Shown in pieces: positions 3,126-32,725 of a stretch of 64,000 bases of DNA. A model generated the notes under the pieces. That model was given only the letters and a program-made list of their open reading frames with translations, made no database searches and was not told where the DNA came from. Within the stretch, counting starts at the first letter, position 1. The number at the start of each line of letters is the position of its first letter. A program made the position numbers and the translations under genes. Source of the DNA: an uncultured Candidatus Saccharibacteria bacterium (lineage in GTDB: Bacteria > Patescibacteriota > Minisyncoccia > UBA6257 > 1-14-0-10-40-38); assembly GCA_964543265.1 (NCBI GenBank), contig CAZIWN010000001.1:38470-102469 (forward strand), written 5' to 3'.

Positions 3126-4271
3126 TTAAAAACTTCCAGAGCTTATCTTTTTTCTTATTTCTTTCAGATAATTCTCTATAAAATAAATATTATGCATAGT
3201 TAATAGTTTTCCAGCTAATTGTTCTTTAGCATGAAGCAGAAAATTAATTTGCCCGATTGAGTAATTTTTACAAGCAAAACACTTACAATTTTTTTCTATT
3301 GGTGAAAATTTATTTTTAAACTTTCCGGCATTTAAATTAAGATTTCCTTTTTTTGTTAGAGCTGTTCCATGTCTGGCAATTCGTGTTGGCATGGCGCAGT
3401 CAAAGACATCTATACCAGCCTTAATCATCAAAGGGATCGATTCCAAATCTCCAATACCTAGTAAATGATGCGGTCGCGATCGGTCGGAATAATCGGTAAC
3501 TTTAGAAATTGTTTTTATCATTTGACCTTTATCATCCGCAAACTCTCCACCGATAGCGATTCCAAAAACAGGTAATTCATTTATTTTTTTAACTGAATTC
3601 ACTCTTAAATCATCATATTTTCCTCCCTGAACTATGCCAAAAACCATTTGGTCTTTTATTTTATTTTTCTTTATATAAGACAAAAACTTTTCATACCAAG
3701 CATTAGTTAAATCTAAATTCTTTTTTACTTCTTCATAATTATCAGAAGGGGATCCACAAACATCTAGCATATATATAAAGTCTGCGCCCAGATCCATCTG
3801 TGTTTTTGCTGAAATTTCTGGGGTTAAAAATATTTCTCGGCCATTTCTAGGAGATCTAAATTTAACACCACTTTCAGATATTTTAACTAAATTCTTGCCA
3901 TTAGGAATTTTCCCGCCCTCTTTTTTATCTCCAACCTTAGATAATCCAAATTCCATTCCTTTTCCTAAAGAAAAAACCTGAAATCCTCCCGAGTCAGTAA
4001 ATATCGGTTTATTAAAATTAAAAAATTTATGCAATCCTCCAAGTTTTTTAATTTCCTGAACTCTGTCTAAATCTAAAAAATGAAAAGTATTAGTGATTTG
4101 GCACTGGGCTTCAGTAGTTAAGGTATCTTCATAATCCATTCCTCCTTTAATCACTCCTAATGTCGCCACGGGAATAAACGCAGGAGTAATAATCTCTCCG
4201 TGCGGAGTAGTGATTTTTCCAATCCTCGCCTTAGATTTTTTTGATTGTTTAGAAACTTCAAATTTAAACAT
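3126..4271 (-). CDS. tgt: Queuine tRNA-ribosyltransferase (tRNA-guanine transglycosylase)
   Basis: 381 aa. N-terminal FEV...ARIGKITTPHGEIITPAFIPVAT, a TIM-barrel core, and a C-terminal CxCxxC zinc motif (CKCFACKNY) with HNIYF. Confidence 0.88.
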   Translation of the reverse strand: MFKFEVSKQSKKSKARIGKITTPHGEIITPAFIPVATLGVIKGGMDYEDTLTTEAQCQITNTFHFLDLDRVQEIKKLGGLHKFFNFNKPIFTDSGGFQVFSLGKGMEFGLSKVGDKKEGGKIPNGKNLVKISESGVKFRSPRNGREIFLTPEISAKTQMDLGADFIYMLDVCGSPSDNYEEVKKNLDLTNAWYEKFLSYIKKNKIKDQMVFGIVQGGKYDDLRVNSVKKINELPVFGIAIGGEFADDKGQMIKTISKVTDYSDRSRPHHLLGIGDLESIPLMIKAGIDVFDCAMPTRIARHGTALTKKGNLNLNAGKFKNKFSPIEKNCKCFACKNYSIGQINFLLHAKEQLAGKLLTMHNIYFIENYLKEIRKKISSGSF

Positions 4272-4895
4272 TTAAATTTTTGCAATATATTTCCTTAAAG
4301 GACACTCTAAATGTTTGCATCTTGCGGTGCAATATTTTCTGCCATAATCTATTAATCGATAGGGGAATTGCGACCATTCTTTTTTTGGTAAAATTTTCAT
4401 TAAATCCTTTTCGATAATTTCAGGATTTTTAGACTTTGTTAACCCGAAGAGATTAGATAGGCGAATCACGTGCGTATCAACCGGAATTCCGGTAATAATT
4501 CCATAAGCATTCCACAAAATAATATTGGCAGATTTTCTGCCAATTCCATTCAATTCCAGCATTTCTTCCATAGTCTTTGGCATTTCGCCATTATGCTTAG
4601 CAACCAAAATTTTTGCAGATTCTAAAATATTTTTTGCCTTAGCTCGAAATAGCCCGATAGATTTTATATCTTTTTGAAATTCTAATAAATCAGCTTTCGC
4701 ATAAGTTTCAACGGTCGGATATTTTTTAAATAAAGCCGGAGTTACTTGATTCACTTTTTTATCCGTGCATTGGGCAGATAAAATAACCGCCACCATCAGT
4801 TCCCAATTATTTCCATAATCAAGCGCGATTTTAGACTTAGGAAAAAGCTTTTTAAGCCCTCCATTTATTTTTAGTATCTTTTTTTTCGAATCCAT
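4272..4895 (-). CDS. nth: Endonuclease III (DNA glycosylase/AP lyase, HhH-GPD, 4Fe-4S)
   Basis: 207 aa. HhH motif LELNGIGRKSANIIL, a catalytic region, and a C-terminal Cys cluster CTARCKHLECPL. Abuts tgt with no gap. Confidence 0.88.
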   Translation of the reverse strand: MDSKKKILKINGGLKKLFPKSKIALDYGNNWELMVAVILSAQCTDKKVNQVTPALFKKYPTVETYAKADLLEFQKDIKSIGLFRAKAKNILESAKILVAKHNGEMPKTMEEMLELNGIGRKSANIILWNAYGIITGIPVDTHVIRLSNLFGLTKSKNPEIIEKDLMKILPKKEWSQFPYRLIDYGRKYCTARCKHLECPLRKYIAKI

Positions 4896-4909
4896 TTATA
4901 TTATCAAAA

Positions 4910-6505
4910 CTAAACTCTAGAAATAACTCTAATCAATTTCTTAGCCTTAGAGTCATTTTCTTTCAAATATTCTGCAAAATCTGGAATCTTTTCAAATTTT
5001 CCATTCTCTATTCTATAGAAGTAATCAATCTTAACTTGTTCTATGAAATATCTGTCGTGTGAAATCAAAATCAAGCTTCCGGTATAATTTTTTAAAAATT
5101 CTTTTAAAGCAGTCACAGCTTCTGCGTCCATATGATTTGTCGGTTCGTCTAAAACTAAAACATTGGCTTTTTTAGCTGCAAAATAAATCAAAATCAATCT
5201 GGCTCTCTCTCCGGGGCTCATAGTTGAAATTTTGTTTTTTGCTTGTTCTTCTGGGAAATCAAATTTAGTTAGTAAATTATAAGCATTACTTTCTCCAATT
5301 CCAGCCATTTGAGATAAAAACTGGATAGGTGATTTTTCCGGTGGTAAGATTTCGTGCTCTTGGCTCATATTAACCAATTTCACCGATCCTCCCATATTTA
5401 TTTCTCCCGAAACAGGTTTTAAATCTCCAAGTAGGGTTTTTATTAAAGTTGATTTTCCTTCTCCGTTTCCACCGATAATACAAACTTTCTTTCCAAATTG
5501 GATATGCAAATCTATCGGCTGAGTTTTAAATGCCTTGCCACGTCCCACAACTAAATGCTTGGCTTCTATTTCGGTATTTCCTTCATTTTTAATTTCATAA
5601 GTTGGAATATTAAATAGATTTTTAATCACTGGTTTATCAAGCATTTCCATTCTCTTTAATCTATTTCCAATAACTTTCGCTGTCCTCAAAGATCTTCCGG
5701 CTTTATTGCGGTTATATCCCTGCAACATCTTGTCGTTATCAGATCTTTCCCATTTAGCTCCATCTTCAGCATCTTGCTTCTTTTCTTCAACAATGACATT
5801 TATTCTTTCAATCTCTCTTTGCTGCGCCTGATACAATTCCCATTTTCTTTTTTCGTCCCTTTCTTCATTTTCTAAGAAGTGGCTATATTTTCCATTAATA
5901 ACTTTAAAATGCCTCGTCTCTCTGTCTATCGAAAAAACTTTCTGTGTAACATTGTCTAAAAATCTCCTATCGTGAGAAACAATAACTCCAGAAATTTCAG
6001 AAGATTTTAAATAATCTTCCAGCCAAATTAAAGAGGGGAGATCTAGATTATTTGTCGGCTCGTCTAATAACAACAAATCTGCTCCTTTCATTAAAATTGA
6101 AATTAGAGCTATTTTTGCTTTTTGTCCCGAGCTTAACTCTTCCACTTTTCTATCCTCGATTCCTTCCTTAAAGCCAAATCCAGAAAGCATTATTTTGGCT
6201 TTATATTCTATTTTTTTTCTTTCTTCATCGTCTATGCCAGCGGTTTTAAAGATAAAGTCCATTACTTTTCCCTTGGCATCTAATTTTAATTCTTGAGGAA
6301 AATATCCAACTCTTATCTTTGGGTGTATTTCTAAAGTTCCAAAATCAGGCTTCTCAACTCCGGCAATTATCTTTAAAAGCGTTGATTTTCCAGTTCCATT
6401 TGGCGCAACCAAAGCCGCCTTCTGCCCTTTTTCAAGAGATAAGGATACATTATTTAAAACCTCTTTAAGGCCATAAGATTTGCTTACATTTCTAAGCTTC
6501 AACAT
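4910..6505 (-). CDS. ABC-F family ATPase (tandem ABC domains, EttA/Uup-like translation factor type)
   Basis: Two Walker A boxes (APNGTGKST, GGNGEGKST), two LSGG signatures, and a charged inter-domain linker. Start placed at MLKLRNVSKSYG (6505), which matches canonical ABC-F N-termini. The ORF track extends to 6565, but that extension overlaps an upstream hairpin. Confidence 0.85.
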   Translation of the reverse strand: MLKLRNVSKSYGLKEVLNNVSLSLEKGQKAALVAPNGTGKSTLLKIIAGVEKPDFGTLEIHPKIRVGYFPQELKLDAKGKVMDFIFKTAGIDDEERKKIEYKAKIMLSGFGFKEGIEDRKVEELSSGQKAKIALISILMKGADLLLLDEPTNNLDLPSLIWLEDYLKSSEISGVIVSHDRRFLDNVTQKVFSIDRETRHFKVINGKYSHFLENEERDEKRKWELYQAQQREIERINVIVEEKKQDAEDGAKWERSDNDKMLQGYNRNKAGRSLRTAKVIGNRLKRMEMLDKPVIKNLFNIPTYEIKNEGNTEIEAKHLVVGRGKAFKTQPIDLHIQFGKKVCIIGGNGEGKSTLIKTLLGDLKPVSGEINMGGSVKLVNMSQEHEILPPEKSPIQFLSQMAGIGESNAYNLLTKFDFPEEQAKNKISTMSPGERARLILIYFAAKKANVLVLDEPTNHMDAEAVTALKEFLKNYTGSLILISHDRYFIEQVKIDYFYRIENGKFEKIPDFAEYLKENDSKAKKLIRVISRV

Positions 6506-6555
6506 AGTTTCAAAATTTTGCCATAAAACAGCCAAAAAGTCTATATAAATTAATG

Positions 6556-6585
6556 TCCCCCGCAAAAAACATCATTCGCGGGGGA
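6556..6585. terminator. GC-rich hairpin (tcccccgc...gcggggga); likely terminator for the minus-strand micro-ORF at 6600-6707
   Basis: 8-bp perfect GC stem with a 14-nt loop. On the minus strand it lies 15 nt downstream of the micro-ORF stop and is followed by a T-containing tract. Confidence 0.4.
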
Positions 6586-6599
6586 TTATTTCATTCCCA

Positions 6600-6707
6600 T
6601 CATTCTCTCCCGAGCTCGGAAGATCGAATTTTCCTACCGGTGAATTTCAGAGTGCAACAAACATACTCGTATGCCCAGTCGCCTTCGACAAACCATTCGG
6701 TAAGCAT
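6600..6707 (-). CDS. Micro-ORF (35 aa) inside GC-rich islet 1
   Basis: Minus-strand ATG preceded by GGGAG 7 nt upstream. Translates MLTEWFVEGDWAYEYVCCTLKFTGRKIRSSELGRE. Followed by the hairpin at 6556-6585. Below the ORF-track cut-off. GC-rich. Confidence 0.3.
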   Translation of the reverse strand: MLTEWFVEGDWAYEYVCCTLKFTGRKIRSSELGRE

Positions 6708-6795
6708 TCTTGGCTCCCGGTTTTGGGTTGAGGGGTTCTAATCCATATAATAGAACTATATATAAATATTGTCAATAATTAATAGTCTTTTTTTT

Positions 6796-6865: not shown

Positions 6866-7282
6866 TTGCTAGCAATCAGGTCAGTCCAAGACGCCAAGGA
6901 AGCGTTTCCTCAATTGAGGTGGAAAGATCTCGTTTCGGGATCGGGAGGCAGGATGGCCTTCGCAATCGTCGGAGGCAACAAGGGGACGGGTGACATCACG
7001 ATTTTCTTGGCCATGGAAGACGGGGCAACTGCGCCCTTACATCGGCACAACAATCGTGAGGGTTGGCCTTTCAATGAATCCATTACTGTTTTAGTAGGTT
7101 CCTTGTACGACGTCGATCCGGGTCAACCAGATCTGGCTGTGGATTCCGGTAGATCAATCGACTTGATCGGCAACAGGCCTCACGCTCCGCGAGTCAACAG
7201 CGGAGGATTCGCTCTTGTCATCTATCGTCAGCCCGCTGGGATGGAGCTGATTGACGGGTCGTCACCCACAACTCCATCCTGA
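6866..7282 (+). CDS. Cupin-domain protein (RmlC-like cupin fold); GC-rich, probably horizontally acquired
   Basis: 138 aa, TTG start 7 nt after AGGGAGG. Cupin motif 1 PLHRHNNREG and a motif-2-like GNRPHAPRVN. GC ~55% against a ~31% background. Own terminator downstream. Confidence 0.6.
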   Translation: MLAIRSVQDAKEAFPQLRWKDLVSGSGGRMAFAIVGGNKGTGDITIFLAMEDGATAPLHRHNNREGWPFNESITVLVGSLYDVDPGQPDLAVDSGRSIDLIGNRPHAPRVNSGGFALVIYRQPAGMELIDGSSPTTPS

Positions 7283-7369: not shown

Positions 7370-8233
7370 TTATTTTTCTCCATTCAATAATGCCAATCCA
7401 CCCCAAAGCCCAACTTCATCCTTCAATTTAGCAATTTTTAAAACTGGGCATTCAGGAAAAACTTTCATTATTTCTTTAAAGTGTTTTTCTATTGATTCAA
7501 ATGGGATTGCTGGCGATCCGAAAATCATCGGTCCGCCCAAAATAATTATTTCTGGAGACCATAAAACGGCCGCGTTGTTCAATCCATAAGAAAGCCACAA
7601 AGCTAGCTCTTCCCAAATTCTTTGATTGTCAATTTCTTTCGGTGGTTTTTTAAATCTTTCCATCAAAGATTTTCCCGAACACATATTTTCCAAATAAGGA
7701 GGATTTTCACAATTTGGGCACAATGTTCTATCTGCGTCTATAATCATATGCCCCGGTTCAAATCCCTGAAAACTCGGAGCAATCTTTTTATTAGCAATTT
7801 TTGCTCCGCCAATTCCCGTTGAGATGGTTAAAAATCCAACTACGTCATATCCTCGCCCCTCACCGTAAACTGCTTCTCCTAAGGCTCCTAAAGCAGCATC
7901 ATTTTCCACCATCACAGAGCAGCTGAAAGCTTTTTCAAAATAACCCTTAATATCCTTAAAGTTCCAATCCGGCAAATTTGGAGCATTAGCAACTCCAGTT
8001 CTTTCATTGTTTATCGGTCCAGCAATTCCAATAGCTATTTTTTTTATTTTTTTTCCTCCAGAAAGCTTAACCGCCAAATCTTTAAATAAAACAACTGCAT
8101 CTATAAATTTTTGCGGAGTGGAAATAGATTCTGATTTATTTATCAATTTTCCGTTTTCGGAAAAGGCGATTCTTGTTTTTGTTCCTCCGATATCAAAAAG
8201 TAAATACATATCCTTCAAATGGTTTAAGTTCAA
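7370..8233 (-). CDS. ROK-family glucokinase / sugar kinase
   Basis: 287 aa. N-terminal LLFDIGGTKTRIA (ATP-binding), ROK zinc motif CPNCENPPYLENMCSGKS. Overlaps the 3' end of the upstream PGI-GH13 gene, which suggests an operon. Confidence 0.8.
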   Translation of the reverse strand: MNLNHLKDMYLLFDIGGTKTRIAFSENGKLINKSESISTPQKFIDAVVLFKDLAVKLSGGKKIKKIAIGIAGPINNERTGVANAPNLPDWNFKDIKGYFEKAFSCSVMVENDAALGALGEAVYGEGRGYDVVGFLTISTGIGGAKIANKKIAPSFQGFEPGHMIIDADRTLCPNCENPPYLENMCSGKSLMERFKKPPKEIDNQRIWEELALWLSYGLNNAAVLWSPEIIILGGPMIFGSPAIPFESIEKHFKEIMKVFPECPVLKIAKLKDEVGLWGGLALLNGEK

Positions 8234-12977: not shown

Positions 12978-13869
12978 CGAGGAAAAGATTTTTCCAGAGC
13001 TTTTAAATAGGCTTTTTAGCTCTCTTTCTGGTCTAAATTTTGAGATTATACTAATAGACGATGGTTCTACTGATAAGACTTATGAATTAATTTCTGAATA
13101 TGCCTCTAAAGATAAGCGGATAAAGGGAATAGTTTTTTCAAGAAATTTCGGACATCAAGCAGCGGTTTCTGCCGGATTAGATATTGCGATTGGTGAATTA
13201 ATTTTAATAATTGATGGCGATCTTCAGGATCCTCCTGAACTGATACCGGAAATGATTAAAAAAATTAATACTGGTTACGATGTCGTTTATGCAGTTAGAA
13301 AAAGCAGAAAGGAAAACTTTTGTAAAAGATTTGCCTACTCTTTCTTTTATAAGATTATGGGTAAAATATCCAAAGACATAGAGCTCCCAAAAGACTCTGG
13401 AGATTTTTCCCTTATTAGAAAAAATGTTGCAGCCGCAATGAAGGAATTAGGAGAAAGAAATAGATATGTGCGAGGAATAAGAGCGTGGGTCGGTTTTAAG
13501 CAAGTAGCTTTCCCTTACGAAAGAGATAAAAGATTTGCCGGAAAGACAAAATATACCCTAAGAAAATTATTCGGATTGGCCTATAATGGAATTTTTTCTT
13601 TTTCATATTTTCCAATAAACTTTATTAGTTTTTTAGGTGCTTTCAGTTTCACTCTTTCGGTAATTGGAATATTTTTAGTTTTATACTTTAGGCTTTTTAC
13701 GGATAGAAATATTCCAGGATTTGCTTCGCTTTCTATAATTTCTTTATTTTTAGGCGGAGTCCAATTGTTATCAGTTGGTGTTTTGGGAGAATATATCAAA
13801 AGAATTTATGACGAGACAAAAGCCCGACCAAACTATATTATTAAAAAGATAATAAACAACGATAAATAA
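12943..13869 (+). CDS. GT2 polyprenyl-phosphate glycosyltransferase (DPM1/ArnC/GtrB-like)
   Basis: 308 aa. VVVPLYNEE...IILIDDGSTD, a DxD-type GT2 core, and two C-terminal TM helices. Overlaps the upstream gene by 35 nt. Confidence 0.85.
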   Translation: MKDLSVVVPLYNEEKIFPELLNRLFSSLSGLNFEIILIDDGSTDKTYELISEYASKDKRIKGIVFSRNFGHQAAVSAGLDIAIGELILIIDGDLQDPPELIPEMIKKINTGYDVVYAVRKSRKENFCKRFAYSFFYKIMGKISKDIELPKDSGDFSLIRKNVAAAMKELGERNRYVRGIRAWVGFKQVAFPYERDKRFAGKTKYTLRKLFGLAYNGIFSFSYFPINFISFLGAFSFTLSVIGIFLVLYFRLFTDRNIPGFASLSIISLFLGGVQLLSVGVLGEYIKRIYDETKARPNYIIKKIINNDK

Positions 13870-13873
13870 AAAA

Positions 13874-14638
13874 GTGAAAAAAGAAATTATTTTTTTATCT
13901 CAGCCACAAAAGGTTAATATGGGAGATGATTGGTTTGAGATTGCAGATGAAAAGCATTTTTGGATTAAGCGAAGATTTTCAGTTTTTAAAAAGATATACC
14001 AAAAATACGCCAAATCTAATTATTTAATAGGGGAAATAGGTTGCGGATCGGGAATTTTTCAAAAACAATACGAGAATTATTACAATTCAAAGATAGACGG
14101 TTTCGATCTCAATATTAAGGCTTTAGAAAATAGTTGCGCTCAAAAAAGCGATATTTTTTGCTACGATATTTCTGAAAGAAAAGTGGATTTAAAAAATAAA
14201 TACGACATCCTTATCCTTTTTGATGTTATAGAGCACATAGAAAATGATGAAAAATTTATAGAAGACGTTAAATTTCATTTAAAAAAGAACGGCAAAATTA
14301 TAATCAATGTTCCAGCTTCTCAAATGCTGTTTAGCGATTATGACAGAGTAGTGGGGCATATGAGGCGCTACAATTCTAAGGACCTTCTTAGGATAGAGAA
14401 AAAATGTAACCTTAAATTAATCCAATGGACCTATTGGGGAATTTTTTTTGTTCCGGTAATTATTTTAAGAAAATTTCTGCTTAAAAGAAAAAAAGATGTT
14501 TCAGACATAATCCAAAATGGCTTTAATCCTAAGAATATTTTTCTAAACAAGATCATGTCTTTTATTGGTAATCTAGAATTTATTCCGCAGCATTTTTTGG
14601 GTTCATCTTTGATGTGTATCTTCGAGAAGCAAGACTAA
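13874..14638 (+). CDS. Class I SAM-dependent methyltransferase
   Basis: 254 aa. Motif I IGEIGCGSGIF, and DVIEHIEND typical of Methyltransf_11/23. Start codon uncertain (GTG at 13874 or ATG at 13919). Confidence 0.75.
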   Translation: MKKEIIFLSQPQKVNMGDDWFEIADEKHFWIKRRFSVFKKIYQKYAKSNYLIGEIGCGSGIFQKQYENYYNSKIDGFDLNIKALENSCAQKSDIFCYDISERKVDLKNKYDILILFDVIEHIENDEKFIEDVKFHLKKNGKIIINVPASQMLFSDYDRVVGHMRRYNSKDLLRIEKKCNLKLIQWTYWGIFFVPVIILRKFLLKRKKDVSDIIQNGFNPKNIFLNKIMSFIGNLEFIPQHFLGSSLMCIFEKQD

Positions 14639-14644
14639 TAAATA

Positions 14645-14675
14645 TTGACAATATACTATATAGTTATATGATATA
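14645..14675 (+). promoter_or_regulatory. Sigma70-like promoter upstream of the Cys-rich islet-2 gene
   Basis: ttgaca at 14645-14650 with an AT-rich -10 region ~17 nt downstream. RBS AGGAGG at 14709-14714. Confidence 0.35.
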
Positions 14676-14721
14676 AATCAGTACCACTAAAACCATCAAT
14701 CCTGAAAGGAGGTGATTCGTC

Positions 14722-15084
14722 TTGAGTTTGAGTTTTCGGGAAATGTTCACTTGCGGCATCTGTGGTAAAGGAGAGTGCTACAGAAAGTTTTGTTTGGATT
14801 GCGTAGATAGAATCCTGAAGACCGAGTTCAAGCATGTTTTTTGCCATTGCTCTGTTTGTGGTTGGCGCGCCATACCCAAAAACTACTTCACCTATAGAAC
14901 AAGGAAGATATTTGGCGCCAAACCAGGTGTTGGTGTGGATGTTCTGATATTCAGTGATGGATGTTTCAATGGGAGATGCGCCAAATCCAAAGCTGTTTGT
15001 CGTTGCGCCCCTCGTCATCTAGTCTTGGATATTTTTCAATTGAAAGTTGCCGCCGAAGAAGTGCGCCAATTCATGGGATCATGA
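14722..15084 (+). CDS. Cysteine-rich hypothetical protein (120 aa, 14 Cys); GC-rich, probably horizontally acquired
   Basis: TTG start 7 nt after AGGAGGTG. Sequence CGICGKGECYRKFCLDCV...CHCSVCGW...CFNGRCAKSKAVCRC. GC ~45%. Terminator hairpin immediately after the stop. The antisense 120-aa ORF lacks such signals. Confidence 0.55.
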   Translation: MSLSFREMFTCGICGKGECYRKFCLDCVDRILKTEFKHVFCHCSVCGWRAIPKNYFTYRTRKIFGAKPGVGVDVLIFSDGCFNGRCAKSKAVCRCAPRHLVLDIFQLKVAAEEVRQFMGS

Positions 15085-15128
15085 CCGTGCTAGGAAGTTT
15101 CTATAACTCCAGCACGGTCCTTTTTTTA
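15084..15128 (+). terminator. Rho-independent terminator of the islet-2 gene
   Basis: gaccgtgct...agcacggtc 9-bp stem followed by T7. Confidence 0.7.
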
Positions 15129-15184
15129 TTTCTGGGGACAAAATAATCTTATTTTTTTGTTATAATTAACTAAAACATTTAAAT

Positions 15185-17263
15185 ATGCCAGAGGAAATTT
15201 TAGAGAAAAAACCATCAGCTAAGGAAGAGGTTGACTCTTCGAGTCTTTTACCGGAAGTTATTAAAGAAAAAGATAAATCAGATTTAGTTTCTGGCGAGGT
15301 TGTTGTCCAAGAAGAAGTTTTAAAAGAGGGCGACTTGGAATTAGAAGTAGGAGTTGATGGAATAGGTCAATCTGAAGTTAGACCATTAGAGATCGATCTA
15401 TCAGGAAAATCTAATGATGTTTTGCCTACTGGCGACGGTGTAGTGGGCGATGAGTTTGAGGTTGTTGGAAGGATTTCTGATTTAGAAAAAACCGCAGACG
15501 ATTTGCCTCCTAAAAAAAGTTTTAAGGATAAATTTTTAAATATTTTAGACAGAGGCAAAGATCTTGGAAAGAATTTTTTACAAAATTCCGCAACGATTGC
15601 AGGCGATTTAGGTAGGAGAAGCGCTAAAGCTATCAGGGATAAAACTTCAGATGTTGCTGAATCATTAAAGCCCAAGTTAGAAAAAGCCATTAATGGAGCA
15701 AGAGATTTTACCGATGAAGCAGTTGCCGTTATTGGGGGCATGGCAAAAGTTGGTGCCTCTAAGCTTGGGGATAAAACAGTTGAGTTGGGGGGATTTTTAA
15801 AAGATTCAGGAATTATCATAAAGGGAGAAATAACTTCTCGCCTAGAATCGGCCGTGGCTCTAGCCGCAGATACTCTGGGAAAAATTTCTAATTCAGATAT
15901 TGTGCAGGGAGCTGTAGATAGAATTTCTATTTTTAAAAATACCATGGCCGAAGCCTGGGTTGGTTCCGGTGTTGATGAATTTAATGCTTTTATTAAGCAA
16001 CAAGAGACTGGGCTGGCGGATATAGAAAAATCTTTATCTTCTAGAAGATCAGATTTAGCCAATTTAGAGCAAATTTCTAAAGATGTTGGTTTTGATGTCA
16101 GTGAAGCCGCTAGAGAAAAACTTCAAAAAGATATAGAAAAAAAAGAAGCCGATCTAAAATCTGAAAAAGATAGAATCGACACAATGAAGGCAGAAAACAG
16201 CTTTTATGAAGTCAGGCGAACTGGTTATCTCGCTAAAATAGAGTCATCTAAAAAAAATATAGCCGACAGAATTCAAGCCAAAATAGACATAAACTCAGAG
16301 CATTCGGAAGATCTCCAAGATCGTTTAGATGAATTATCTGCAAATAAAAGAAAAAATTCCGGAGAATTAGAAAAATTAACAACTCACTTTAGGGATTTGG
16401 ATAGACTAACTAGAGAAACTGATTCCGAGGGCGCAAGGCGCTCTGCGGTTAGTTTAATGCGTCAGATTGGGCCAAGAATAAATGAATTAGAGGCAGAATT
16501 GATCGCTTGTAATAAAGATGAAGGTAAAATTTTAAAACGAAAAGCCAAAATAGATCAAAAAATAGCAAAAAATGAAGAAAATCTAGATGATATAAATTAT
16601 GAAATTAAAGAAACGCTAGATAAGGCTGATGGTGTTGAGTCAAAAAGATTTTCTGAAAGAGGGTTCTTTAAGAGATGGAATGAGGCTATGAAGGATTATC
16701 CGATAAAATGGGAAGAGATGCATTGGTTTTATGGACCAGATTTAGGAGCTAGCATACCTATAAGTAGAAGGATGATGAAAGATGATAAACATAAATCTAG
16801 ATTTATACAGATGTTGGTTAAAAGCGGTATAGATCCCAAGAGGCAGGATTTAAATAAGATATTTAAAGAAGGGCTAGATGCCATATATGGAACAAGTAAT
16901 GGCGTCGGTGGTAATAGTAAATCAGAAAAAGCTATTGATAGTAATTCAGAAACCGTAGAAGAAAAGCCAGTTTATTTCGAGGATTATTTATTAGAAGAGT
17001 CGGCTGTTAAAGAAGCAGCTCATGAAACCCAAGAAGTTAAGGGCCAAGAAAAAAGACTTTCTTTGGATGAATTTTTAGCAGCTTGGAATCAAGATTTCCC
17101 AGAGTTGTCTCTAGTGAAGGGAAACTTTGCCACCGTAAGTAAAATGAGGAGGGATAAAAGCAATATGCGCCATGTCATTTTAAACCTAGTTCACGCTCAG
17201 CATCCAGGAAGCAATCCTAAAATCGTCAAAATGTGCATTGATGCAATTTATAAAAATAAATAA
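15185..17263 (+). CDS. Large acidic coiled-coil protein, no recognisable family
   Basis: 692 aa. E/K/D-rich with long heptad-like stretches (residues ~280-470) and no TM or signal sequence. Conserved-looking C-terminal globular part (KWEEMHWFYGPDLGASIPISRRMM...). Confidence 0.6.
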   Translation: MPEEILEKKPSAKEEVDSSSLLPEVIKEKDKSDLVSGEVVVQEEVLKEGDLELEVGVDGIGQSEVRPLEIDLSGKSNDVLPTGDGVVGDEFEVVGRISDLEKTADDLPPKKSFKDKFLNILDRGKDLGKNFLQNSATIAGDLGRRSAKAIRDKTSDVAESLKPKLEKAINGARDFTDEAVAVIGGMAKVGASKLGDKTVELGGFLKDSGIIIKGEITSRLESAVALAADTLGKISNSDIVQGAVDRISIFKNTMAEAWVGSGVDEFNAFIKQQETGLADIEKSLSSRRSDLANLEQISKDVGFDVSEAAREKLQKDIEKKEADLKSEKDRIDTMKAENSFYEVRRTGYLAKIESSKKNIADRIQAKIDINSEHSEDLQDRLDELSANKRKNSGELEKLTTHFRDLDRLTRETDSEGARRSAVSLMRQIGPRINELEAELIACNKDEGKILKRKAKIDQKIAKNEENLDDINYEIKETLDKADGVESKRFSERGFFKRWNEAMKDYPIKWEEMHWFYGPDLGASIPISRRMMKDDKHKSRFIQMLVKSGIDPKRQDLNKIFKEGLDAIYGTSNGVGGNSKSEKAIDSNSETVEEKPVYFEDYLLEESAVKEAAHETQEVKGQEKRLSLDEFLAAWNQDFPELSLVKGNFATVSKMRRDKSNMRHVILNLVHAQHPGSNPKIVKMCIDAIYKNK

Positions 17264-32518: not shown

Positions 32519-32668
32519 GTGCGCGTCATCTACGATGCAGTTCTGGGGCTACTGGCTTTTGCCCGTGGCTCCTGGAACAAGTTGTTCGAGGAAGATGCCA
32601 TCACGAGGGTGAGGAGAAGGATCGAGCGAGCTCGAGATGAGGGCAGGATTCCAAGACGAGCAGCATGA
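32519..32668 (+). CDS. Arg-rich micro-protein (49 aa) in GC-rich islet 3
   Basis: GTG start 5 nt after AAGGAGG. Translates VRVIYDAVLGLLAFARGSWNKLFEEDAITRVRRRIERARDEGRIPRRAA. GC >55%. Strong terminator immediately downstream. Not in the ORF track because it is shorter than 60 aa. Confidence 0.4.
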   Translation: MRVIYDAVLGLLAFARGSWNKLFEEDAITRVRRRIERARDEGRIPRRAA

Positions 32669-32675
32669 ATTTCAA

Positions 32676-32725
32676 CAGGGCCTTTTATCGGAACGCAGTT
32701 TCCGGTCGAAAGGCCCTTTTTTTAT
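32676..32725 (+). terminator. Rho-independent terminator of the islet-3 micro-gene
   Basis: agggccttt...aaaggccct stem with an extended inner helix, followed by T7. Confidence 0.7.

Follow-up and report, generated by a model that had tools for sequence, protein, structure and literature searches.

A native, overlooked cysteine-rich gene founds a small orphan family, probably metal-binding, in a narrow clade of Candidatus Paceibacterota

Zinc-ribbon and treble-clef domains are, in their ligand pattern, among the closest described counterparts of the protein reported here. They are organised around rubredoxin-type knuckles, a zinc ribbon taking the four ligands of one metal from two CxxC(G) knuckles at beta-turns, and both the CxxCG knuckle and a CxxC pair that leads into a helix are typical features of structural zinc sites; rapid divergence is likewise typical where metal ligands fix the fold of a small protein. 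RING and PHD fingers are cross-brace domains in which eight ligands hold two Zn ions, and the RING (C3HC4) signature has the spacing C-x2-C-x(9-39)-C-x(1-3)-H-x(2-3)-C-x2-C-x(4-48)-C-x2-C. Two further classes bear on the comparison, the DnaJ-type cysteine-rich domain with its four CxxCxGxG repeats, and the ferredoxins, of which the plant type belongs to the beta-grasp fold class. A comparison of a different kind is offered by the orphan small proteins of the Patescibacteria (CPR), which occur in few related genomes, are unannotated and short, and are easily missed or placed on the wrong strand. The gene described below is like these orphans in all of these respects but differs in that comparison supports both its coding status and a defined ligand pattern, its regulatory signals are conserved and its neighbour is fixed.

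The window, by which we mean the whole stretch of 64,000 nucleotides that was analysed, is a segment of an AT-rich chromosome (35.0% GC) that carries a ribosomal-protein cluster, EF-Tu, SecDF and three tRNAs, and its closest relatives are Candidatus Paceibacterota MAGs. The sequence and the list of its open reading frames place a TTG-start frame of 120 codons on the + strand at 14722-15084. Its product contains 12 cysteines, at residues 11, 14, 19, 24, 27, 41, 43, 46, 81, 86, 93 and 95; an earlier sequence-only reading, which had correctly described the frame, its promoter, its strong Shine-Dalgarno (SD) sequence, its hairpin terminator and an antisense ORF of equal length, had counted 14. The promoter (14645-14672, + strand) is sigma-70-like, consists of a -35 TTGACA (14645-14650), a 16-nt spacer and a -10 TATGAT (14667-14672), matches the consensus at 11 of 12 positions and is the top site within 13800-15600. 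The ribosome-binding site GAAAGGAGGTGAT (14704-14716, +) contains AGGAGG at 14707-14712, 9 nt ahead of the start codon. Transcription is predicted to end at an intrinsic terminator (15083-15130, +) whose 37-nt hairpin (15083-15119) begins inside the stop codon, precedes a T-run and folds with -21.5 kcal/mol (z = -7.6); a consensus terminator scan overlooked this hairpin, presumably owing to internal bulges or a long apical part. Directly downstream on the same strand lies a gene for a 692-aa coiled-coil protein (15185-17263) that has no family or PDB match. Between the two genes are an element TTTCTGGGGACAAAA (15129-15143, +), a motif unique in the window, and an extended -10 TGTTATAAT (15158-15166, +), presumably the promoter of the coiled-coil gene.

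Three orthologues were recovered, each by a different route. The upstream methyltransferase, used as a query, led to a Lake Baikal Paceibacterota MAG (L001) whose methyltransferase is 87% identical and which carries, at 4110-4457, a GTG-start gene for a protein of 115 aa, 35% identical to the window protein (E = 2e-17). Exhaustive phmmer found a second one (P0001), likewise of 115 aa but with an ATG start, at 152-499 of a 580-bp groundwater contig (L026) that ends in the promoter of the coiled-coil gene, that gene itself lying beyond the contig. The sole homologue found for the coiled-coil protein (P0006) pointed to a further Paceibacterota genome (L027), where a GTG-start gene of 118 codons occupies the same place at 7556-7912 and no gene had been called. 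The resulting family of four shares 34-67% amino acid identity over lengths of 115-120 aa, and its start codons, TTG in the window, GTG in L001 and L027 and ATG in L026, each lie near a conserved SD sequence. In the window, L001 and L027 alike, the gene directly upstream of the coiled-coil gene is the cysteine-rich one.

Beyond these four sequences the protein stands alone, and the impression of the sequence-only reading that it matched no recognised family was borne out. Pfam, NCBIfam, PHROG, PADLOC and the PDB returned no significant match; a PADLOC REase_II match (E = 8e-4) covered 26 residues in one orthologue only and was judged to be due to chance. In a word-indexed search of 5.8 billion proteins the single sequence had no match and the profile retrieved only the two relatives already known, and exhaustive phmmer against 1.8 billion representatives yielded one true relative. 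Two giant repeat proteins listed by the latter (P0002 and P0003) are not homologous: their E-values come from adding up five to six short RTX-like 'DVLxFGxG' matches that fall on residues 58-84 of the window protein, and they were rejected because the other family members lack this stretch. Back-translated patterns of the cysteine-rich family or of its coiled-coil neighbour found nothing in metagenome (JGI) and viral contigs, tblastn found no relatives in phage and plasmid records, and a literature search brought up nothing relevant. The family does not extend beyond a narrow clade of Candidatus Paceibacterota.

Eight of the cysteines (C11, C14, C24, C27, C43, C46, C81 and C86) are invariant among the four orthologues, and they fall into four pairs, C11-x2-C14, which forms a CxxCG knuckle, C24-x2-C27, C43-x2-C46 and C81-x4-C86. 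The overall pattern is C-x2-C-x9-C-x2-C-x15-C-x2-C-x34-C-x4-C. His99 is invariant too, as are several hydrophobic residues common to all four sequences, and conservation extends over the whole length of the protein. All four proteins are basic, with a pI of 8.8-9.4 (9.2 for the window protein) and a net charge of +5 to +10, and no membrane helix is expected in any of them, the top 19-residue hydropathy staying below 1.5. They also diverge fast, since their dN of 0.66-0.70 compares with 0.05-0.10 in housekeeping neighbours and corresponds to a 7- to 15-fold faster evolution. The suggestion of the sequence-only reading that the product might be a zinc-ribbon or metal-binding protein sits well with this pattern of four cysteine pairs, invariant over four diverged orthologues.

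The likeness to zinc ribbons and treble clefs thus lies in the paired CxxC motifs (CxxCG at 11-15, CxxC at 24-27 and at 43-46, all invariant), of which the first is a CxxCG knuckle and the second is followed by a helix in a structure model, and in a small, basic protein of which only the ligands and a few hydrophobic residues are conserved and the rest evolves fast. It is unlike them in that no sequence or fold match reaches significance and that there are four pairs rather than two; unlike described fingers, it moreover has a C-terminal part of about 75 residues with strands and a long helix. The weak Pfam matches are all to zinc-finger families (ADD/GATA-like, RING, DZR, NMD3 and IBR; E = 0.03-0.2), the best zinc-ribbon score being that of DZR_2 (E = 0.057, for one member), and no model passes. 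AlphaFold2 (AF2) run on three sequences gave one usable model of low reliability (pLDDT 70.5, pTM 0.59; the other four models had a pLDDT of 35-54), in which the second CxxC runs straight into a helix and the third sits at the turn of a beta-hairpin, followed by two more strands and the long C-terminal helix. The orthologue P0001 gave similar secondary-structure elements at a pLDDT of only 42. As the structure prediction is fragile, the assignment of the metal sites is drawn from the sequence pattern.

The cross-brace domains agree with the family in number, eight ligands in four pairs, and some of the weak Pfam matches are of the RING/PHD kind, namely zf-C3HC4_5, IBR and the ADD finger of DNMT3. 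They are unlike it in geometry: the second and third pairs are separated by 15 residues here, against 2-3 in RING and 4-5 in PHD domains, the last pair is Cx4C and not CxxC, and the ligand at the fourth position is a cysteine, with no histidine. A RING finger was rejected on these grounds, as the x15 and x4 spacings fall outside the permitted ranges and zf-C3HC4_5 reaches 14.7 bits where the cut-off is 27. A DnaJ-type cysteine-rich domain was rejected as well, because only the first pair is similar (CGICGKG fits CxxCGxG), the second to fourth pairs do not have the glycine pattern, and there is no Pfam match.

The most serious competitor for the identity of the cysteine scaffold is a small ferredoxin-like or redox-sensing protein in which the eight cysteines would bind one or more iron-sulfur clusters. 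In favour of this reading, eight cysteines are invariant, and many of the top Foldseek matches, none of them significant, are to ubiquitin-like folds (PB1, Atg8/LC3, SAMP), which belong to the beta-grasp class. Every one of these fold matches has E > 0.1, Foldseek gave nothing significant in either the PDB or BFVD, and neither of the canonical spacings, CxxCxxCxxxC or Cx4Cx2Cx29C, fits the alignment; a plant-type [2Fe-2S] or a [4Fe-4S] ferredoxin was therefore discarded, with spacings absent among the invariant cysteines and no sequence match in Pfam or the PDB. The CxxCG knuckle and the CxxC before a helix point instead to structural zinc, and we regard an iron-sulfur protein as improbable.

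Whether the gene belongs to this genome is a separate question, and the sequence-only reading had answered it by proposing that a cassette had entered between the methyltransferase gene and the coiled-coil gene. A recently acquired, horizontally transferred and self-contained cassette would account for the gene's own promoter and terminator, for its composition, with a GC3 of 0.446 against a median of 0.285 and the third-lowest CAI among 63 ORFs, and for the way in which the gene content upstream of the promoter differs among the relatives: a methyltransferase in the window, a GC-rich radical SAM gene and an NTP-transferase remnant in L001, and a radical SAM gene and PMT_2 in L027. What stands against it is the conservation of the locus. 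In the window, L001 and L027 the gene keeps its place beside the coiled-coil gene, and its signals recur on the L026 contig. The -35 TTGACA is invariant at all four orthologous loci; the GAAAGGAGGTGATT ribosome-binding site is among the conserved elements, the full GAAAGGAGGTGAT being identical in L001 and L027 with its 9-nt spacing kept, and its counterpart in L026 reading GAAAGGGGGTGGG at a spacing of 7 nt. The terminator hairpins fold alike, with compensatory changes at two stem pairs, and the downstream TTTCTGGGGACAAAA ... TGTTATAAT element is conserved along with promoter, ribosome-binding site and terminator.

These signals have been retained between well-diverged genomes. SecD, SecF and RsmE are 83-92% identical at the protein level and show a pS of 0.59-0.62, that is, the housekeeping genes are saturated at synonymous sites, which does not fit a recent arrival. 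Nor do the flanks resemble those of an insertion, as they are better conserved than the gene itself: between genomes, identity is 73-86% over the stretch that separates the stop codon from the next ATG, against 57-69% over the coding sequence (nucleotide identity), and the non-coding flanks are 73-91% identical, the 81 nt upstream in L026 alone falling to 60-64%. The phage, plasmid, viral and metagenome collections searched hold no relatives, and the GC-rich islets of the window, of which this gene is the second, have no common repeats and no att-like ends. A mobile gene cassette or genomic islet was thus rejected on account of the fixed neighbour and the lack of common flanking repeats and of mobile relatives. 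The sequence-only reading had itself set a conserved and native region against its cassette, and a conserved and native region is what was found. Because gene, promoter, SD sequence and terminator are all conserved in the same position beside the coiled-coil gene, the cysteine-rich gene is native and not an inserted cassette, and we give a recent insertion little probability. An ancient acquisition by the ancestor of the clade could still lie behind it.

The GC content of the ORF is indeed elevated (44.4% against 35.0% for the window), but only modestly so (z = 2.2, within the top 1.8% of 363-nt windows) and to a degree similar to EF-Tu; it shows more strongly at the third codon positions. The orthologues also retain a high GC3, 0.38-0.48 against 0.25-0.27 in neighbouring genes, and this persists even though synonymous sites show saturation and no site-by-site conservation. 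The codon pattern is unlike that of EF-Tu, and the low CAI makes for a poor fit to simple translational selection for high expression. RNA structure as the cause was ruled out by the folding and RNAalifold results given below. Such stable GC-rich codon usage within AT-rich genomes is a small anomaly.

Only the first and third islets of the window have a higher GC3 than the cysteine-rich gene. Islet 1 (6866-7282, +) holds a 138-aa TTG-start ORF with 54% GC, a GC3 of 0.57 and the second-lowest CAI; its product has an HxHxxxE motif like that of cupins (PLHRHNNREGW), matches cupins weakly by sequence in the PDB (1lr5, E = 0.15; 2vqa, E = 0.2), and has no match in Pfam, NCBIfam, PHROG or PADLOC. 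With a composition far from that of the genome, unlike that of islet 2, it is the better candidate for a foreign gene. Islet 3 (32519-32722, +; 56% GC) carries a 49-aa GTG-start ORF (MRVIYDAVLGLLAFARGSWNKLFEEDAITRVRRRIERARDEGRIPRRAA) behind GGAGG, and after the ORF come a GC-rich hairpin (GGGCCTTT...AAAGGCCC) and a T-run; of all ORFs in the window this one has the lowest CAI, and it matches no family. The three islets have no repeats in common beyond a 24-nt similarity, AAGACTAWTAAWTATTGACAATAT, which is 22/24 identical between 6766-6789 (-) and 14631-14654 (+). We rejected it as a cassette boundary, since it is promoter context only: the copy at 6766-6789 is a TTGACA-17-TATTAT promoter that points left to the gene at 4910-6565, and the GC-richer leader in between (6566-6740) measures about 170 nt and has no Rfam match.

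A third possibility, raised in the sequence-only reading as a precursor-like peptide, is a cysteine-rich RiPP precursor matured by a nearby radical SAM enzyme. The product is cysteine-rich, and in L001 and L027 a B12-binding radical SAM gene does lie 1.6-2 kb upstream; the window, however, has no radical SAM gene, so that no maturase is conserved next to the family. Radical SAM genes also occur 1.3-2.5 kb from the methyltransferase match in two Bacteroidota loci fetched via distant methyltransferase homologues (L022 and L023), and the enzyme thus appears to be tied to the methyltransferase/glycosylation cluster and not to the cysteine-rich gene. With 115-120 aa the proteins are also long for a precursor, they are conserved from end to end, paired CxxC motifs and C-terminal helix included, with no division into leader and core, and no peptidase or transporter is adjacent. 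A RiPP precursor was accordingly rejected and is, in our judgement, very improbable. The radical SAM gene itself (L001:978-2522 and L027:4311-5975; about 52% GC, GC3 about 0.55) adjoins the methyltransferase in both genomes, and the glycosylation cluster of which the latter is part (GtrA, GT2, methyltransferase, PMT_2) is rearranged between genomes.

That the islet encodes a protein at all, and on which strand, was settled by comparison of the orthologues. In a frame-by-frame test of three sequences (window, L001 and L026) only the + frame is open throughout. Indels in the coding sequence measure 12 nt and 3 nt and are thus multiples of three, the codons of conserved Cys, Gly and Lys residues vary at their third positions, and the closest pair, L001 and L026, has a pN of 0.23 and a pS of 0.71, equivalent to a dN/dS of about 0.12. 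From the open + frame, the in-frame indels, the third-position changes and the excess of pS over pN it follows that the + strand protein is real and under purifying selection.

This evidence also bears on the view that the islet specifies a structured non-coding RNA and that the two 120-aa ORFs arose by chance in a GC-rich stretch. In AT-rich genomes, islets of high GC are often RNA genes, and here the GC content is equal at the three codon positions (0.44/0.45/0.45) and both strands are open in the window. Yet the codon-periodic substitutions and the in-frame indels are those of coding sequence, and the two strands fold no better than shuffled sequence (z = -1.4 and -0.7). RNAalifold on the four orthologues supports the terminator only. 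A curated RNA family was discarded, as Rfam 15 run on 14300-15500 at E = 10 gave only chance matches (E > 1), and at the gathering threshold the whole window yielded just three tRNAs, located elsewhere. A non-coding RNA is therefore extremely unlikely.

The reading adopted in public records, finally, takes the ATG-start minus-strand ORF (14656-15018, 120 aa) for the gene; a gene caller picked it on an identical Logan contig (L030:2222-2584), and its product (P0007) stands on record as a singleton cluster in NCBI/Logan, sourced from NCBI. The ORF runs codon for codon antisense to the + frame, and it is open in the window because the + frame has no TTA, CTA or TCA codons before 15019. Since the antisense frame is interrupted by four stops in L001 and five in L026, since the L027 antisense strand offers nothing but ORFs of 33-63 aa, and since neither an SD sequence, a promoter nor a family match was found for this ORF or its product, it can be dismissed as a spurious shadow ORF with next to no chance of being the real gene.

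We conclude that a real, native, + strand gene for a protein built on a cysteine scaffold is very likely, and our best explanation of the locus, which we consider probable, is a native, monocistronic + strand gene for a small, basic, cytoplasmic protein, probably with two tetra-cysteine metal sites. Its fold would be held by these two sites, formed from the CxxCG knuckle, the CxxC before the helix, the CxxC at the hairpin turn and the Cx4C pair. The metal would most likely be zinc, and two zinc sites are, judged from the ligand pattern, slightly favoured. With a strong promoter of its own, a consensus SD sequence and a terminator, the gene would be transcribed separately and expressed strongly, and its product would be expected to reside in the cytoplasm.

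What such a protein might do can be outlined more tentatively, from its composition and its neighbourhood. It may act as an adaptor or regulator that binds nucleic acid or protein, possibly together with the coiled-coil neighbour. The basic surface suggests binding of nucleic acid or of a partner, and given the invariant adjacency this partner could be the coiled-coil protein or the conserved promoter/terminator region; the coiled-coil protein is a possible functional partner, and a nucleic-acid-binding or regulatory role is no better than possible. The intergenic stretch 15085-15184, whose conserved parts include the terminator loop (AAGTTTCWAYAACTC) and the unique TTTCTGGGGACAAAA motif, is conserved beyond what a plain terminator and promoter would need, and it may contain a regulatory site. 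As a separate observation, the coiled-coil gene is a single ORF in the window and in L027 (633 aa), and in the Baikal MAG it is present as two ORFs (4556-5617 and 5783-6667; 353 and 294 aa); a frameshift, a faulty assembly or a true split could be the cause.

A bolder version of the preferred reading, which we consider doubtful, goes further. The gene would be the founding member of a clade-specific, fast-evolving metal-binding family that acts with the coiled-coil protein, for example as a metal-dependent regulator or assembly factor in a lineage-specific module for cell structure or host contact (these bacteria are episymbiotic); some force would hold its GC3 unusually high, and gene callers would have kept the family largely out of the databases.

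Ordinary but overlooked, the cysteine-rich gene is the founder of a small orphan family. Public annotation of this genome places a conserved gene on the wrong strand, and in one relative it was left uncalled. The first protein search came back empty because the antisense ORF was the one on record and the gene in L027 had not been called; more generally, searches of protein databases under-report the family, as gene callers skip the gene or take the antisense strand. A six-frame, synteny-guided survey of the Patescibacteria could uncover more such hidden small proteins. For the biology of this little-understood phylum, the finding adds one small orphan family, probably zinc-binding, that is linked to an uncharacterised coiled-coil protein.
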